Positions 25,187 through 63,378 of a DNA stretch of 64,000 bases are shown piece by piece. Below the pieces are notes generated by a model, which was given only the letters and a program-made list of their open reading frames with translations, was not told the origin of the DNA and did no database searches. The position numbers were made by a program, and so were the translations under genes. The DNA is from Candidatus Versatilivorator sp. (GTDB lineage: Bacteria; Acidobacteriota; Terriglobia; Versatilivoradales; Versatilivoraceae): NCBI GenBank assembly GCA_965207735.1, contig OZ242296.1, positions 3,744,001-3,808,000 of the forward strand, given 5' to 3'. Numbering within the stretch: position 1 is the first letter of the stretch; each line of letters starts with the position of its first letter.

Positions 25187-26503
25187 TCAGGCAGGTTTGG
25201 CCGGTCTGATGATGGGCAGCCGGAACACCAGCCAGAGCGCCCCCAGGATGGTGGCGATGGCGAATCCGAAGCTGGCGGCGAATCCGAACCCGCCGGTCAA
25301 GGCTCCGTGGGTGGCGGGAGCCACGCTGGAAGCCAGCGGAGCCAGGGCCATGACCGACATGTTTCGGGCTCCCTCCGCCGCCGGCGAGATGCTGACTACG
25401 TAGTTGGGAAGGTAGGCTCCTCCCAGTTCTCCCGCTCCCAGCAACCCGAAGGAAAGCAGGTAGCCGAAGCCCGGCACCAGCCAGGCCCAGGCGATTCCCG
25501 CTCCCACCAGCAGGACCGTTGTGGTCACCGGCGACCGAATTCCCCTGCGGAGAGCCAAAGCCCCCAGCAGGAACCCGGCCACCGACTTGAATCCGAAGCG
25601 AAGGGCCATCACCAGTCCCGAAAACTCCTTGGGTTCCCTCCCCATGGCCTGCCGGGTATAGAGCGAGAGGTTGGGCATGGATGATAGCGAGAAGTACCAG
25701 AGCACATAGGCGATCCAGGTCAGGGCCAGGGGGCGGGAGGAAAAAAAGGCCCCGATGCTGCTCCGGAGATAAGGCAGCAAGGGCGGGCGCTGCTTCTGTT
25801 CCTTGACCGGAACCAGCTGGTAGCGGCTGCTGAGAAAGGCCACCGTGGCCATGCAGGGCACGCCGATGCCGTAGAGGAAGGCGAAGTCCAGGGGATAGGG
25901 CAAGAAGGGCAGTCCCCGGTTCAGAATGAACTGGGCTCCCAGGGAGCCGGCTACCGCGGCCAGGGGAGTGAACCCGAAAGCGATGCCGAAGATTCTGGCA
26001 CGCCCGGGCGTGGTGGTTCCGCGGCGCAGGCATTGGAAACCGAAAGCGTGGGCCACCGAATTGGAAACGCCCTGGATCAGGCCCTGGGCCAGGAGAGCGG
26101 CAATGCGGACCGCGTTGGAGAAGGGCAGCAGCAAGGTGGTCCCCACGGCAGCCAGCACGGTGGTGCTGATGCCGTAGGACCAGACCACGGTGGCCCTTTC
26201 CAGGCGGTAAGGGATGAGCCAGGAACAGATCAACGGCCCGAGCCCGCCCAGCAGGTGGAGGGATGCGGGCAGGCTGGCGACCGTGTAGCCGGCCCCGAGC
26301 TTGTCGCACAGGGCAGCCTGGACAATGCCGATGTAGGTGACCGGGGCGGCCAAGTAGATCAGCACGTAGGAGCAGAAGAAAAGGACCCCGTTCCGGCGTT
26401 CCATGGACGGCGTCAGGCCTTCCAGTTCCTGCTGCTCGGGAAGTGAGTCGGTGGTGTCAGGAGTCGTTCCCGGGGAACCGGAAGGGTCGCTATTTTGAAA
26501 CAC
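25187..26503 (-). CDS. MFS-type transporter
   Basis: About 12 hydrophobic helices in two bundles; start uncertain. Confidence 0.8.
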   Translation of the reverse strand: MFQNSDPSGSPGTTPDTTDSLPEQQELEGLTPSMERRNGVLFFCSYVLIYLAAPVTYIGIVQAALCDKLGAGYTVASLPASLHLLGGLGPLICSWLIPYRLERATVVWSYGISTTVLAAVGTTLLLPFSNAVRIAALLAQGLIQGVSNSVAHAFGFQCLRRGTTTPGRARIFGIAFGFTPLAAVAGSLGAQFILNRGLPFLPYPLDFAFLYGIGVPCMATVAFLSSRYQLVPVKEQKQRPPLLPYLRSSIGAFFSSRPLALTWIAYVLWYFSLSSMPNLSLYTRQAMGREPKEFSGLVMALRFGFKSVAGFLLGALALRRGIRSPVTTTVLLVGAGIAWAWLVPGFGYLLSFGLLGAGELGGAYLPNYVVSISPAAEGARNMSVMALAPLASSVAPATHGALTGGFGFAASFGFAIATILGALWLVFRLPIIRPAKPA

Positions 26504-26639
26504 CCCTGTTTCACCCCGTATCAGCCGCCCCGTCGAATGGGAGGTCGGCGCGGCCAGATGAATAGTGAAGAGCTTAAAGACAGTGGAGAGTAATTAGTGG
26601 TCAATTGTTTCGCAGTGTATGGTCCGCACGGCAGGGCGG
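26496..26639 (+). repeat. Degenerate copy of the TGAAACA...TGTTTCA modular repeat
   Basis: TGAAACA-CCCC-TGTTTCACCCCGTATCAGCCGCCC at 26496 and TTGTTTCGCAGTGTATGGTCCGCACGGCAGGGCGG at 26605 resemble tails at 51366 and 63142. Confidence 0.6.
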
Positions 26640-32045: not shown

Positions 32046-32216
32046 CTTGTCTGAAACAAACGAAAAAAGACAAAAGAAAAAGAGTGATCCACGAAGGGAC
32101 ACGAAGGACGACGAAGGGACACTAAGGCGCTGAGGTTAACCGCGACGGGGTACCAAGATCGCGAGAGGACTATCGATTTCCGATTGTTTCACCCTCGTAT
32201 GATCTGCCCGGCAGGG
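32046..32216 (+). repeat. Modular repeat unit A, copy 1
   Basis: CTTGTCTGAAACAA...CACGAAGG repeats...CACTAAGGCGCTGAGGTTAACCGCGACGGGGTACCAAG...TTGTTTCA-tail; closely similar at 51228, 63003, 63187. Confidence 0.9.
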
Positions 32217-32247
32217 AAGGGGCCGGACTTTTTAGGTATTGATAGTC

Positions 32248-32371
32248 CCCGGGCGAACGCCCGGGCGACCCATTGAGCCGCGGAGCGGCGCCAGCAGGTA
32301 GCCGTGGGCGTCAGCCCATGGGAAACGTCGCCTATGGGTGTCGAGCCGCGTAGGCGGCGGCAGCAAATGCC
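32248..32371. repeat. REP-like hairpin cluster
   Basis: GCCGCGGAGCGGC and TAGCCGTGGGCGTCAGCCCATGGGAAA hairpins, repeated at 38711-38911. Confidence 0.8.
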
Positions 32372-32411
32372 GGTGAGCCCAAGTGAAGCACAAGCCGACG
32401 CAAGGATGATT

Positions 32412-32790
32412 TGAAACAACGCCTTGTGCCGGGTGGCGGAACATCCGTTCAAAGTCAAGCATAGTCAGACGGCTAATTTACATGGATGCACAGGATGGAC
32501 AGGATTATTCGGCGAGAGTTTCCACCGTCGTGAGTTCAACCGTCGCCTCCGTTCCAACACGGATTTCCCAAAACCCGCTCCCAGGCTCTTGGATTACTTC
32601 CAGCACCCACCCGATCATCAAGCGGGTCTGCTTCTGTGGCACAGCCTCCCGTGCTGTTTATCCTGTATATCCTGTGCATCCATGTTCAATCAGTAGAAAA
32701 CCGGTTTGCCACGACAGGGTCCTTGTTCCCGGCAGGCCATGAAGATGCGTTGTTTCACGCTCGAATGATCCGTCCCGTCGTCGGGGACGG
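32412..32790 (+). repeat. Modular repeat unit B with nested palindromic element
   Basis: TGAAACAA (32412) to TTGTTTCA (32750) plus tail; internal arms ACATGGATGCACAGGATGGACAGGAT (32480) / ATCCTGTATATCCTGTGCATCCATGT (32660); homologous to 51416-51635. Confidence 0.85.
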
Positions 32791-32797
32791 AGCCTCG

Positions 32798-33178
32798 CTA
32801 CCTGGAGCTTCCAGCCGGCGGCGCGGAGGGACGGCTGAGAACGAACAGGGCCACCCCCAGGCTGATCAGTATCAGCACCACCTGAAGGTAGGGCGAGCGC
32901 ACCACGAACCACACGCTGTAGCCGACCAGGCCGAACATCAGCACCACCGAGGCGGCCTTGGCCCCCGGGCGGATCACTTGTCCGTTTTCCCAGTCGCGCA
33001 GAATGGGTCCGAAGCGCCGGTGGGCTCGCAGCCATTGGTGAATCCGAGGCGAGCTCCTGGAGAAAAAGTAGGCGGCCAGCAATACCAGCGGGGTGGTGGG
33101 AACCAGGGGAAGGAATATCCCTGCGAATCCAATCGACAGAGACACAAGTCCCAAGGCCAAGTAGAGTTTTCTGATCAT
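32798..33178 (-). CDS. ybaN: YbaN/DUF454 membrane protein
   Basis: LPLVPTTPLVLLAAYFFSRSSPRIHQWL..H..FG. Confidence 0.92.
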   Translation of the reverse strand: MIRKLYLALGLVSLSIGFAGIFLPLVPTTPLVLLAAYFFSRSSPRIHQWLRAHRRFGPILRDWENGQVIRPGAKAASVVLMFGLVGYSVWFVVRSPYLQVVLILISLGVALFVLSRPSAPPAGSSR

Positions 33179-38710: not shown

Positions 38711-38911
38711 TAGCCGTGGGGGTCAGCCCATGGGAAACGTCCCGTACGGGAGTTGAGCCGCGAATGCGGCGGCAGCAAATGCCTTAAGCAGATGCCAAGC
38801 GCTGACTAACGAAATGGCGTTTCTCAGCTGCACATAGGCAGCGTGAGCCGGCTTCCTTGAGAGCCGCGAAGCGGCGCCAGCACATAGCCGTGGGCGTCAG
38901 CCCATGGGAAA
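38711..38911. repeat. Two REP-like hairpin units
   Basis: TAGCCGTGGGSGTCAGCCCATGGGAAA at 38711 and 38885 with GAGCCGCG..GCGGCG hairpins. Confidence 0.8.
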
Positions 38912-49476: not shown

Positions 49477-51315
49477 ATGAAGGACCGGTCGCGAGGGGAG
49501 ACCGGTTCCGGTGTGCCCGCCAAACGTCCGGCTCGTGGCTCATTCGGGTTCGGAATGGCCTGGGCGGTTCTGCTGATGGCGCACCTCCTCCAGGTTTCGG
49601 CCCAACCGCAAGCGATTCCCCAATTCGTCGACATTACCCGCTCCAGCAACATCACCTTCCGGCACATGAACGGTGCCGAGCGGAACAAGCGCTACCTGTT
49701 CGAGCTCAAGGGCGGCGGCGCCGGTTTCTTCGATTTTGATAACGATGGCTGGCTGGACCTCTTCATGGTTCAGGGATCCACCCTGGAGAGATTCCGCAAG
49801 GGAGACAACCCCCACGGCACTCTCTATCGAAACCAGGGAGACGGCACCTTCAGGGACGTGACCCGGAAGTCGGGACTGACCCGCACGGCCTGGGGGATGG
49901 GAGTCAGCTTCGGAGACTACGACAACGACGGCTTGGCCGATATCTACCTCAACAACCTGGGCTCCAACTTCCTTTACAGGAACCTGGGCGACGGGACTTT
50001 CCGGGATGTCACGGCGCAGGCCGGCGTGGGAGGTTCCGGGTGGACCTCGTCCTCGGCCTTCGGCGACTACGACGGGGACGGGGACCTGGACCTGTTCGTC
50101 TGCAACTACATCCACTACGACTTCGAGAACCTGCAGCCACCCGATCCCAAGCTGGTCTGCCACTACCGGGGCATTACCATCCCCTGCGGACCGCTGGGGC
50201 TCCAGGCCGGGTCCAACCGGCTCTACCGCAACAACGGCGACGGCACATTTGCCGACGTCACCAAGCCTTCCGGATTGGACGTGAACAACCGTTTTTATTC
50301 TCTGGGCGTGGTTTGGGCCGATCTGGACGGCGACGGGGACCAGGACCTCTACCTGGCCAACGACAGCACCCCCAATCAGCTCTATGTCAACCAGGGCAAC
50401 GGCACCTTCAAGGAAATGGGACTCTTGAGTGGGCTGGCAACCAGTGCCGCCGGAGACTTCCAGGGCGGTATGGGAGTGGATGCCGCCGACTACGACAACG
50501 ACGGGCGGTTGGACGTCTTCGTGACAAACTTCGCTCACGACTACAGCACGCTCTACCGGAACCGGGGCGGCCTCAACTTCGAGGACGTGACCCAGCAGGC
50601 TGGGTTGATTCAGCCGGAATGGCTGTTGGTCGGTTGGGGTACGGGCTTCTATGACCTCGACCACGACGGCTGGAAGGACATCTTCCATTCCAACGGACAC
50701 GTCTATCCCTTCATCCTGGACGCCGAATGGTCGGAGACCTATTTCCAGCCCTCCTCCATCTATATCAACCAGCGGGACGGGACCTTCAGGGACGTGAGAA
50801 AGATGGCGGGAGGCGATCTCCGGAAGGAGCTCTTGGGACGGGGGATGGCTTTCGCGGACTTCGACAACGACGGCGACATGGACTTCCTCATCGGCAACCT
50901 CAACGGCACCCCTCGCCTCTACCGGCACCAGGGGGCGGCCCCCAACCATTGGGTGATGTTCCGGGCCAAAGGGGTCCGGAGCAATCGCGACGGAATCGGG
51001 GCCCGCATCACCGTGGTTACCGGCCGGCTGCGGCAGGTCTGGGAGATCAAACGAACCGTCGGGATCTACTCGGCCAGCGATCCCCGAGCCCATTTCGGGT
51101 TGGGGAAAGCCGGCCGGATCGATCGGGTGGAGGTGAGATGGCCCAGCGGAGCGGTGCAGGAATTCAAGGGCGTGCCGGTCGACCGGCACTACCGGATCGA
51201 CGAAGATAAGGGGTTGGAGAGAGAGTTCTTGTCTGAAACAAACGAAAAAAGACTAGAGAAAAAGAGGAATCCACGAAGACACACGAAGGACGACGAAGGG
51301 CCACTAAGGCGCTGA
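49477..51315 (+). CDS. CRTAC1-like FG-GAP / ASPIC-UnbV protein, second paralog
   Basis: Same motifs as 38957; last ~28 codons read through repeat unit A; start uncertain. Confidence 0.93.
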   Translation: MKDRSRGETGSGVPAKRPARGSFGFGMAWAVLLMAHLLQVSAQPQAIPQFVDITRSSNITFRHMNGAERNKRYLFELKGGGAGFFDFDNDGWLDLFMVQGSTLERFRKGDNPHGTLYRNQGDGTFRDVTRKSGLTRTAWGMGVSFGDYDNDGLADIYLNNLGSNFLYRNLGDGTFRDVTAQAGVGGSGWTSSSAFGDYDGDGDLDLFVCNYIHYDFENLQPPDPKLVCHYRGITIPCGPLGLQAGSNRLYRNNGDGTFADVTKPSGLDVNNRFYSLGVVWADLDGDGDQDLYLANDSTPNQLYVNQGNGTFKEMGLLSGLATSAAGDFQGGMGVDAADYDNDGRLDVFVTNFAHDYSTLYRNRGGLNFEDVTQQAGLIQPEWLLVGWGTGFYDLDHDGWKDIFHSNGHVYPFILDAEWSETYFQPSSIYINQRDGTFRDVRKMAGGDLRKELLGRGMAFADFDNDGDMDFLIGNLNGTPRLYRHQGAAPNHWVMFRAKGVRSNRDGIGARITVVTGRLRQVWEIKRTVGIYSASDPRAHFGLGKAGRIDRVEVRWPSGAVQEFKGVPVDRHYRIDEDKGLEREFLSETNEKRLEKKRNPRRHTKDDEGPLRR

Positions 51316-51940
51316 GGTTAACCGCGACGGGGTACCAAGATCGCGAAGGGATGGTCGATTTCTGATTGTTTCACTCTCGGATGATCCGCCCGGCAGGGCG
51401 GGGTCCTCGCTTGCCTGAAACAACCCCTTGCGCCGGGTGGCTGGAGACCGGCTCAAGGTCAAGCATGGGTAGTTGGTTTATTCACATGGATGCACAGGAT
51501 GCACAGGGTTTTTTCTGAAGACGGCTGGCTTGCAGTCCTGGACATCCGCAAATCCGCACCGGATCTTCGCCCGAGTTGGCTTCTGGTGCAGGAAGCTCTC
51601 GTCCTGTAAATCCTGTGTATCCTGTGCATCCATGTTAATTATGAGCCTTTTGCAAATATCGCAATCGGGAATGACGTTGAGGCGGCAAGGATGATGTGCT
51701 GCAGGCTCCAGCATTCACCACGATAAGCACAAGAGACAACAGAAACCACAAAAAGCACAAGAGGCACAAAACGGGTTTCTTGATTTCGAGACTTGCCGAT
51801 CGGATGGTTCTTTTTGTGCCTTTTGTGGCCATTCCCGGCAAAGGTCCCGCTGCCGAATTTTGCAAACGCCTCGACAAAAGAAAAAGAGTGATCCACGAAG
51901 AACGACGAAGGGCCACCAAGAGAAGACGGTGATCCGTGGG
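51228..51940 (+). repeat. Composite repeat cluster (unit A, unit B, MITE-like element, partial A)
   Basis: A 51228-51403; B from 51416 with arms 51484/51602-51635; TIR-bounded 51643-51872; partial A from 51873. Confidence 0.85.
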
Positions 51941-61799: not shown

Positions 61800-63011
61800 A
61801 TGAAACGCAGAGAGTTCCTGGCTGCCGCGACCGCCACTCCGGCAATGCTGCTTGCCCGCACCGGGGCCGGTGGAACGCCGACCGAGTCAGGGAAGAATTT
61901 CTTGATGGAGCACGGTTTTTGGGACTATACCACCCCGGGCGCCGGAGGAATGGAGTCTTACGGGCAGGACGACTATCTCTCCCTGCTCGACGACATGGCC
62001 GGGGCGGGCATGAACTCCCTGATGATCTACGTGAAGTGGCTGACTACGGGTTACCGGTCCCGACTCCCGTTCCAGGATCAGTCTCCCGAAAACCCGGTCA
62101 TCGCCTCCGACAATTCCCTGCTGCAGCGGACCATCGAGGAGGCGGGTCAACGGGGGATCAAGGTCTGGCTGGGAGGCGCGGTGACCTATTTCGACACCTC
62201 CAGGTTTCGAGCCGATCCCTACCGAACTTACACTCGGTTGAGCGGATTCGATCTGCCGGTGGAGGTGGGGTTGTTCGATACCGACACCCCAGGGCTCAGC
62301 GAGCGCATCGTTCAGATCTACGAGGAACTGGTGGAGCTGTTTCCGGGCGCCGGGGGCCTGGAGGTGGAGCTTGAAGGGGCCGGAGTCGAGAGCGCCCGCC
62401 GAATCCCGCTCTATGATCGATGGGCCCGGGAAAACGGGCGTCCGCCGTTTGTGGAGCTGGGCCACCCGTTCAACCCCCGATCGTTCGATGTTCCCGACTG
62501 GCGGGACTACACCACCGATTCCCGCCTGAGGGTGCTCCGGGCCGTAGAAGATGCCGTGCGGGCCAAGGGGTTTCGGGGGGACCTGGCGACGATCTGCGAA
62601 ACGGGCTCCAGGCCCTACGCCCTGGGTCAGGCCGTCAACCTGAGGGAATTCCACAGGCGCTTTCCCGATTGGACCGCCACCACCTACGAGTACGACAAGT
62701 GGAACCACCGCTATGGGATGATGGATCTCTGCATCGACCATCCCAAGCGGGAAGGGGTCCAGGTGTTTTATCTCCCCCGAGGAGTCATGACCTGGGGAAG
62801 CCGGTGGCCCCTGCCGATCGCCCTGGAGCAAAGTTGGCGGATGGACCTGGAAGACATTCGAAGATTCAAGCCCCGGGGAGTCTGGTGGTTCGGAAGCGGG
62901 GGACGCAGCGAGGGCGCTCACGTGAGTCTTGCCAGGCTGAAGCAGTCCGGCTTCAGCAGCGGCAAGGAGGCGCGGCGGGCCTTGCTGAGGGCGGCTTCGG
63001 AACTTGTCTGA
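61800..63011 (+). CDS. Tat-exported TIM-barrel-like hypothetical protein
   Basis: MKRREFL signal; LDDMAGAGMN, A.QRGIKVWLG pattern. Confidence 0.72.
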   Translation: MKRREFLAAATATPAMLLARTGAGGTPTESGKNFLMEHGFWDYTTPGAGGMESYGQDDYLSLLDDMAGAGMNSLMIYVKWLTTGYRSRLPFQDQSPENPVIASDNSLLQRTIEEAGQRGIKVWLGGAVTYFDTSRFRADPYRTYTRLSGFDLPVEVGLFDTDTPGLSERIVQIYEELVELFPGAGGLEVELEGAGVESARRIPLYDRWARENGRPPFVELGHPFNPRSFDVPDWRDYTTDSRLRVLRAVEDAVRAKGFRGDLATICETGSRPYALGQAVNLREFHRRFPDWTATTYEYDKWNHRYGMMDLCIDHPKREGVQVFYLPRGVMTWGSRWPLPIALEQSWRMDLEDIRRFKPRGVWWFGSGGRSEGAHVSLARLKQSGFSSGKEARRALLRAASELV

Positions 63012-63378
63012 AACAAACGACAAACGACAAAAGACAAACGACTTATCCACGAAGGGGCACGAAGGACCACGAAGGGGCACTAAGGCGCTGAGGTTAACCG
63101 CGACGGGGTACCAAGTTCGTGAAGGGTTGATCGATTTCTGATTGTTTCACTCTATGTATGATCCGCACACCAGGGCGGGGGCCCGGCTTGTCTGAAACAA
63201 ACGACAAAAGACAAAAGAAAAAGACATTTTCACGAAGGGGCACGAAGGAACGACAAAGGACCACTAAGGCGTTGGGGTTAACCGTGACGGGATACCAAGG
63301 TTAGGAAGGGATGATCAATTTCTGATTGTTTCATTCTCGTATGATCTGCTTATCCTGTCCATCCTGTGCATCCATGTT
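63003..63378 (+). repeat. Two tandem copies of unit A plus an orphan palindrome arm
   Basis: CTTGTCTGAAACAA at 63003 and 63187; TTGTTTCA at 63142 and 63326; ATCCTGTCCATCCTGTGCATCCATGTT at 63352. Confidence 0.9.

Follow-up and report, generated by a model that had tools for sequence, protein, structure and literature searches.

What sets in motion a family of short repeated units that carry no gene, and that share their ends while exchanging what lies between them, is the question raised by a 64,000-nucleotide stretch of the genome of Candidatus Versatilivorator sp. (the window; positions given below are counted within it). An earlier, sequence-only reading of the window had considered either a non-autonomous cassette mobilized in trans or a structured RNA family. 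From the comparisons described in the following, the gene-less units are likely to be moved in trans by an IS110 recombinase together with a bridge RNA that, by prediction, recognizes the joined ends in the form of a folded single strand.

Layout of the units in the window

On the + strand, to which all positions below refer, a unit consists, in order, of a CT core, TGYC, TGAAACA, cargo, TGTTTCA, 4 nt, a distal site, a GC hairpin, 9 nt and a second CT core. The motifs and copies first noticed in the window are all found there, with TGAAACAA at 32052, 32412, 51234, 51416, 63009 and 63193, TTGTTTCA at 32184, 32750, 51366, 63142 and 63326, and CTTGTCTGAAACAA at 32046, 51228, 63003 and 63187. In a grouping of the repeats into families, the four cargo-A copies (32046, 51228, 63003 and 63187) are recovered as family D1 and two cargo-B starts as family D12.

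The complete cargo-A unit at 32046..32229, delimited by flank comparison and empty sites, extends from the CT core at 32046-47 to that at 32228-29. Its left end (32046..32059), the equivalent of the B box of ISPpu9, is formed by the core CT, the 4-nt right-donor half TGTC and the inverted repeat TGAAACAA, and matches the right donor guide and, nearly, also the right target guide of the bridge RNA. Cargo A (32060..32183) carries a CCACGAAG-type terminal repeat of GxxExxY (PF13366) cassettes, as judged from matches beside GxxExxY genes (L184, L186 and L187). The right end (32184..32229), the equivalent of the ISPpu9 A box, is made of TTGTTTCA, a 4-nt spacer, the distal guide site (32196-32204), the GC hairpin (32205-32218), 9 nt and the core CT. 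An intervening recurrent module (32230..32411), with an Acido-Lenti-1 match at 32276-32321, belongs to a different repeat family and is followed by a cargo-B unit (32412..32799), which starts with TGAAACAA without CTTGYC and contains a GxxExxY cassette relic, TTGTTTCA (32750-57), the hairpin and the core CT at 32798-99. The distal site of this unit (32762-70) is a perfect match to the left donor guide, and its downstream flank is identical to that of empty sites in relatives. The A + B region as a whole (32046..32799) is flanked by tRNA-Val and a DUF454 gene.

A second complete cargo-A unit, from CT to CT, is found at 51228..51411, in tandem with a cargo-B unit (51410..51640) with an intact left end, broken by another repeat and without a right end. 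The third complete cargo-A unit (63003..63188) is a variant with a spacer longer by 1 nt, adjoined by a cargo-A unit truncated past the distal site (63187..63351), which is cut off after its ATGATC motif. Cargo B is present at both positions proposed for it, 32412 and 51416, but neither copy has complete ends, the former lacking CTTGYC and the latter the right end, while the near-empty form noticed at 26496 is real in a decayed state, being a degenerate mini unit (TGAAACA-CCCC-TGTTTCA, 26497..26550) with a decayed tail and without CTTGYC. The palindromic tandem junctions at 51366-51423 and 63142-63200 are both there. The gene-less repeat that breaks cargo B at 51640-51870 has GAGCCTTTTGCAAA-type inverted ends, like those of the IS1182-like element mentioned below.

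Element boundaries and empty sites

The units reach past their inverted repeats to a CT dinucleotide on each side. In ten IS copies of the same genome (see below) the flanks diverge at CT on both sides, the 4 nt past the left CT tracking the IS variant and the 4 nt past the right CT being variable. The locus of the 32046 units was compared in 13 relatives, nine of which have both anchors. Four of these nine are empty, with a single CT; of the others, one carries two other A units, three a different, mini or remnant unit, and one a REP-like repeat only. At the 51228 locus one relative (L171) has the empty target CT-TGCC, and no clean empty site could be read at the 63003 locus, the relatives being too scrambled there. 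Presence and absence at orthologous sites with the core as boundary, as in IS110-derived MITEs, are therefore found, along with the features of IS110 itself, namely the core dinucleotide on both sides, a single core at the empty site and no target duplication. By these comparisons, the true ends of the element are the duplicated CT core.

Genome-wide distribution and cargo

The genome is a single contig of 5.26 Mb. At up to three mismatches it holds 221 copies of the 24-nt right-end motif, and at up to four 249, the corresponding figures for 2 Mb of shuffled DNA, both strands included, being 0 and 2. A left repeat could be paired with 179 of the 249 right ends. The interiors of the paired units comprise 90 short A, 18 empty minis (TGAAACA-ACCC-TGTTTCA, 18 bp), 8 B, 8 A-left/B-right mosaics and further mixed types, and 10 of the 179 measure 1627 or 1639 bp. 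Ends and cargo vary independently, as had been supposed, across mini, A, B, mosaic and IS110 forms. The exact ATGATC is carried by 159 of 193 units located by cargo alone, the CT follows the stem after 9 nt in 134 of the genome's 221 units and after 8 nt in 53, and all but one of the 44 multi-unit loci (43/44) have a single orientation. Within the genus, 12 of 13 genomes have cargo A; none of 17 more distant genomes does.

With respect to the origin of the cargo, seven of ten GxxExxY loci fetched align with cargo B, over the gene as well as its inverted flanks, and the remaining three with cargo A, over the flanks. BLAST gave no significant match of cargoes A and B to the IS110 interior, so that a deleted IS interior or a relic of the bridge RNA can be discarded as their source; the alignments identify both cargoes as relics of GxxExxY nuclease cassettes. 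The GxxExxY genes themselves (L179-L188) have inverted short tandem repeats at their flanks, of at least two sequence types, with gene-less relics genome-wide. Other mobile elements are nested in the units, namely, in genome coordinates, three group II introns (G000:C1:409280, 4519448 and 1408387), six copies of an IS1182/IS5-like element (at 105763 and five more places), which enters cargo A at one fixed spot, two of IS1380 (3001704 and 5248650) and one of IS1634 (3305329).

The exchangeability of the cargo, down to 4 bp, and the differences among relatives, in which a site may be filled, empty or occupied by something else, bear on the second of the initial proposals, by which the units would form a structured non-coding RNA family kept for its function. 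Contigs from RNA libraries (two runs of one study) do cover the repeats and leave the flanking genes uncovered, but these contigs are without strand, derive from relatives and sum over hundreds of copies. Furthermore, the Rfam scan of the window returned tRNA and two Acido-Lenti-1 matches alone, and none on unit ends or cargo, while the conserved parts of the units are those of DNA recombination ends. A functional RNA family is, in the light of this, the least probable of the explanations considered, and its probability is very small indeed.

The IS110 partner element

The ten units of 1627 or 1639 bp encode, on the opposite strand, an IS110 transposase, which matches PF01548 (DEDD RuvC) and PF02371 (Transposase_20) above cut-off and NF033542 with 217 bits (cut-off 140). 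They are the sole PF01548 matches in the genome, and copies of equal length are 97.4-100% identical. The protein has 455-464 residues, and its only solved relatives are IS621 and ISCro4. All ten copies sit at a unit end, with a cargo-A left end directly next. Since the same ends are found around an IS110 transposase in ten copies, the units of the window can be regarded as gene-less derivatives of IS110, comparable to MITEPpu9 of ISPpu9; indeed, they have both IS ends, without the transposase gene, and are found in tandem with the IS as well as alone. It is, therefore, very probable that they are IS110 mini-elements. The initial statement that no enzyme is encoded holds for the units of the window and fails genome-wide, where the ten copies elsewhere are the ORF-enclosing forms that had been sought, and the idea of a non-autonomous cassette moved in trans is supported by a partner with identical ends in ten copies.

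That all ten IS copies lie at unit ends would also be expected if the units were a host REP/BIME-like family, spread by a RAYT or a rolling-circle transposase, which IS110 merely targets and resembles. ISPpu9, ISPpu10 and IS621 do target REPs, according to the portions of the literature consulted, and the arrays look BIME-like. However, the same end layout surrounds IS110 genes in unrelated soil, water and sediment contigs, so that it belongs to the IS clade; the units have no GTAG/GTGG starts and are in direct rather than alternating orientation; and the genome has a single Y1-transposase locus, with no unit ends within 1.5 kb. No match to a Y2 transposase (PF04986) was obtained either, in a search whose control rang nowhere and which thus weighs little, and no Y2 transposase gene is found among the paired long units. 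This explanation is largely refuted and retains only a slim probability. As for the corresponding family assignments, that to REP/REPIN/BIME with RAYT was rejected because there are no GTAG-type starts and no inverted doublets and the one Y1 locus is without unit ends, and that to IS91/Helitron, suggested by the CTTG end, is improbable because the enclosed gene is that of an IS110, in addition to the lack of a Y2 match (with the weak control). The IS1111 group was also considered and set aside, the repeats being of 8 bp at 4 nt and about 36 nt from the cores, not 7 and 3 bp, and the RNA being upstream, not downstream.

Outside this genome, cargo-A matches without any match to the transposase of the window genome are found in four members of the genus with fragmented assemblies and likewise in two complete ones (G009 and G011). 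In a number of Bryobacterales and metagenome relatives (L040, L052, L053, L110, L121, L122 and L133) a second left end directly follows the IS, which indicates that mini-element partners recur across the clade. Downstream of the match in L012, two full IS copies form a head-to-tail dimer, that is, a natural donor junction. Among contigs from sequencing runs no circle joint on the IS was found; one 182-nt joint on the repeats that 'goes back' is indistinguishable from tandem copies. In L061, L095 and L130 the element is inserted in an apparent tRNA 3' end, seemingly restored by the element's own start, and in L061 a mini unit adjoins the IS. The IS110 relatives of L025-L033, at 78-79% identity, have the donor end in common and a heptamer repeat ending in GTGGTCAG as target; their left donor guide agrees with the most frequent distal variant of the window genome's units. 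A 44%-identical IS110 is common on plasmids of Citrobacter and Enterobacter.

Bridge RNA and predicted guide pairing

Bridge-RNA loci were collected from genomes (50) and metagenomes (79), and 78, including the own element, were picked from 130 for the region upstream of the transposase gene. Of these, 71 could be parsed, seven having no anchor; removal of 12 near-duplicates left 59 non-redundant loci and that of six without a parsable left end left 53 scorable per test. L019, which was mis-parsed, was also dropped from the right-end tests, and two proteins with stops from the tree. The upstream region aligns well in 30 loci and has a donor loop with a covarying inner stem; RNAalifold recovers the donor loop well and, of the target loop, the inner hairpin only. 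As in IS110 elements, the RNA encoded by the non-coding end thus has two loops, and its guides covary with target and donor.

The right (3') donor guide agrees with the element's own end at 210 of 212 positions, and in the window genome, where it could be parsed in six of the ten copies, it equals the own end in all six. For the right (3') target guide, agreement with the flank reaches 202 of 212 positions, a figure biased upward by the choice of the flank as the best AG within 14-40 nt. The two 3' guides of the window genome, GGCAAG for the donor and GACAAG for the target, read nearly the same hexamer, which accounts for the formation of arrays. The left target guide is nearly unconstrained (33% against 24% when shuffled, mainly owing to the base beside the core).

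The left (5') donor guide behaves differently from its IS621 counterpart. Canonical pairing with the bases beside the core, as in IS621-type donor recognition, was rejected, the match being at the shuffled level (44/318, 14%), shifts of 1-3 nt included. Instead, the guide matches the distal site at 292 of 318 positions (92%), against a shuffled mean of 69%, and none of 5000 shuffles reaches 292. This site lies about 21 nt (mostly 20-24) from the core, beyond the GC hairpin and in the same sense as the right guide, and its position was fixed by the inverted repeat together with an invariant C, independently of the guide; 15 distinct left donor guides enter the test. In 25 branch-disjoint pairs from a tree of 51 proteins, guide and distal site change jointly in ten (eight concordantly), the guide alone in seven and the distal site alone in seven, so that their changes coincide (Fisher p 2e-7), as opposed to those at the canonical site (p 0.12). 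Mismatches between guide and distal site lean towards G-T wobble with the CT-core strand (14 versus 5, p 0.03), and the matching RNA stretch is at the exact position of the left donor guide of IS621. Taken together, these comparisons make it highly probable that the left donor guide would pair with the distal site.

Within the genome, the distal base beside the invariant C mismatches the own genome's guide in 96 of 221 units and agrees instead with that of a relative at 79% identity (L025, L031), so that other IS110 variants have probably spread many of the units. The match of guide and distal site is only partial, as judged by eye, in five plasmid relatives at 44-47% identity. An RNA contig of a relative covers 64 nt of the bridge-RNA region at a depth of 278, which is too weak to be used.

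Predicted fold of the donor junction

If both donor guides pair with one strand, the CT strand must fold back on itself. The sequences at the junction of two units are consistent with such a fold. Directly past the distal site lies a 4-bp stem, which in 44 of 53 loci is separated from the core by exactly 9 nt, the offsets 7, 8, 10 and 11 being represented by 0-4 loci; its pairs include CG, GC, AT and TA. The inverted-repeat arms covary (101/200 against 64 when shuffled), and the facing 4-nt strands of the bubble between them and the stem are not complementary (26/168). In the window, the tandem junction at 51366..51423, which represents a donor junction, has a centroid fold in which two stems enclose a bubble of 12 x 14 nt, with both guide sites exposed; folded as DNA, it gives z values of -2.2 on the + and -3.0 on the - strand, and the junction at 63142-63200 folds only weakly (-1.1 and -1.8, respectively). 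Since the left donor guide matches the distal site on the strand of the right guide, the 58-nt junction likely folds into a pre-opened bubble, with exchange of one strand.

A mechanism can be outlined on this basis. The inverted repeats and the GC hairpin would close a bubble resembling the IS621 donor in its opened state. The lower strand of the folded junction would not be complementary to the core, making a second strand exchange unavailable, so that only the CT-bearing strand would be exchangeable. Excision would peel out a single-stranded circle, and insertion of one strand would then be completed by replication or repair. With the left target guide nearly free, the target would measure about 6-7 nt, being little more than CT-TGYC, and, as every unit end recreates CT-TGYC, units and IS copies would pile up head to tail. 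The cargo, lying outside all contacts, would never be read and could be exchanged for anything from 4 bp to kilobases. The complete folded-donor, one-strand mechanism is an inferred scheme, for which the balance of probability is moderately favourable.

Where the single-stranded DNA would come from is a further aspect. The replication-strand bias known for IS608 and attC is, unlike in those systems, not seen for the units of this genome: orientation with respect to replication is even (75 versus 75 loci), origin and terminus being placed from an uneven GC skew. A lagging-strand source is, therefore, unsupported, and supercoil-driven extrusion or circles made by the enzyme would remain. The cumulative GC skew also gives unequal replichores of about 1.5 and 3.8 Mb, which suggests a large rearrangement.

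The near freedom of the left target guide and the lack of strand bias among loci would also be accommodated by mini-elements mobilized by IS110 from an ordinary duplex donor, read by a half-match with the right guide only. Half-match recombination is reported for IS621 in the parts of the literature consulted, and a mutant of the ISPpu9 A-box palindrome still circularized, giving minicircles, in the available text of PMC12288879. The identity of guide and distal site would then stem from an antisense RNA of the element's end (like Asr9 of ISPpu9), which would yield the same wobble direction, or from a transient excision loop. However, no third complementary segment was found in the sense RNA (0/53), and a duplex donor leaves unexplained why the spacing past the hairpin is fixed at 9 nt, why a 4-nt spacer faces the 4-nt donor half, why the inverted-repeat arms covary and why the guide stretch lies exactly at the IS621 left-donor-guide position. 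Both the duplex donor and this origin of the identity are considered unlikely, and reading of a folded single strand is preferred.

Relation to known systems

Integron attC sites and the ends of IS200/IS605 elements act as folded single strands, an imperfect palindrome of about 59 bp allowing for one-strand exchange and, in the former, for cassette arrays. The junction of the window genome is also an imperfect palindrome of about 59 bp, proposed to act as a folded single strand, and the units form arrays; they differ in the enzyme class, in the would-be RNA-guided recognition and in the lack of replication-strand bias. They are not integron attC cassettes, as the junction reads GTT...AAC, the reverse of RYYYAAC...GTTRRRY. 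A slight preference can be given to the view that a widespread IS110 clade, probably including ISPpu9, is an integron-like RNA-guided system with a folded single-stranded donor and with the 60-bp mini unit as the smallest mobile donor. In such a system the donor would be built from two short ends, a single strand would be inserted at a 6-7 nt site, and any cargo could be carried in cassette arrays.

The closest parallel by end layout is ISPpu9 of Pseudomonas putida KT2440, for which the text of PMC12288879 describes an AG core on the gene strand, an A box of 43 nt with a GCCC-N4-GGGC hairpin, a 14-nt spacer and AAACA, and a short B box with TGTTT. The gene-less MITEPpu9 (the ssr9 module) has the same boxes, is found in tandem with ISPpu9, alone or duplicated, and was shown to form its own circles (PMC12288879, text). 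A and B boxes match the ends of the window genome part for part, in the available description, so that the units appear as a much larger family of the MITEPpu9 kind. As far as that description goes, there are eight copies there versus over 200 right ends in the window genome, whose units have several unrelated cargoes and an 18-bp empty form, and where the mini-element, located upstream of the transposase gene, also serves as the target. In the same text (PMC12288879) the palindrome is left unexplained and called intriguing, and donor guides are not mapped. A motif search for the ISPpu9 bridge RNA in the text and supplement of PMC8450116 was negative, and the A-box motif was found in no viral contig.

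With IS621, as described in the portion of PMC11208160 consulted, the window clade shares an RNA upstream of the gene with two internal loops, 3' guides that pair with the CT strand including the core, and a 5' guide that ends in the core C. However, the left donor guide of IS621 reads the bottom strand beside the core (PMC11208160) and that of the window clade a top-strand site beyond the hairpin; furthermore, the gene of the latter runs opposite to the CT strand, its left target guide is nearly unconstrained, and its protein is longer (455-464 versus 328 residues). In ISPpu10, in the text available for bioRxiv 10.64898/2026.03.19.712850, a DNA stem-loop also aids IS110 recognition and the left guide is permissive, but the hairpin is in the target and is added to normal pairing, whereas in the window clade it is in the donor and would re-route guide pairing. 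For both IS621 and CazIS110, there are reports of excision and insertion by one strand (bioRxiv 10.64898/2026.08.31.748434 and 10.1101/2025.10.25.684509, in part), and tandem non-coding units beside IS110 in the accessible part of bioRxiv 10.64898/2026.08.14.744561. The half-match, one-strand and tandem reports share with the present scheme single-stranded circles, top-strand insertion and head-to-tail growth at element ends; they differ, in the sections consulted, by duplex-type guides and circles thought to be made double-stranded before insertion, and no folded donor is described there.

Thus, IS110 mini-elements and their tandem growth are already known, and what would be new with respect to the literature found is a donor guide that is predicted to pair across a hairpin on the same strand. 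No folded or discontinuous donor was found in searches of the IS110 literature at the level of its text; the cluster figures of 10.64898/2026.10.21.760802 could hold this RNA type. Models, searches and designs for bridge recombinases assume that every guide pairs with an uninterrupted duplex site, and such pipelines would mis-score a clade in which the donor guide jumps over a hairpin and pairs on the same strand. A folded donor would also account for the palindrome of ISPpu9, bears on whether IS110 moves one strand or two, and points to RNA-guided insertion from single-stranded donors in which the end sequence takes up about 60 nt. At the level of the genome, over 200 intergenic repeats would be explained as IS110 parasites carrying other repeats and mobile elements.

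Finally, the two Acido-Lenti-1 matches of the window (32276-32321 and 38862-38907) read GTAG followed by a palindrome and are REP-like, and the genome's single Y1-transposase match (L001) is preceded, at a distance of about 490 bp, by a similar motif. In the light of this REP-like content and of the motif near the Y1-transposase match, the Acido-Lenti-1 family may be a DNA repeat.
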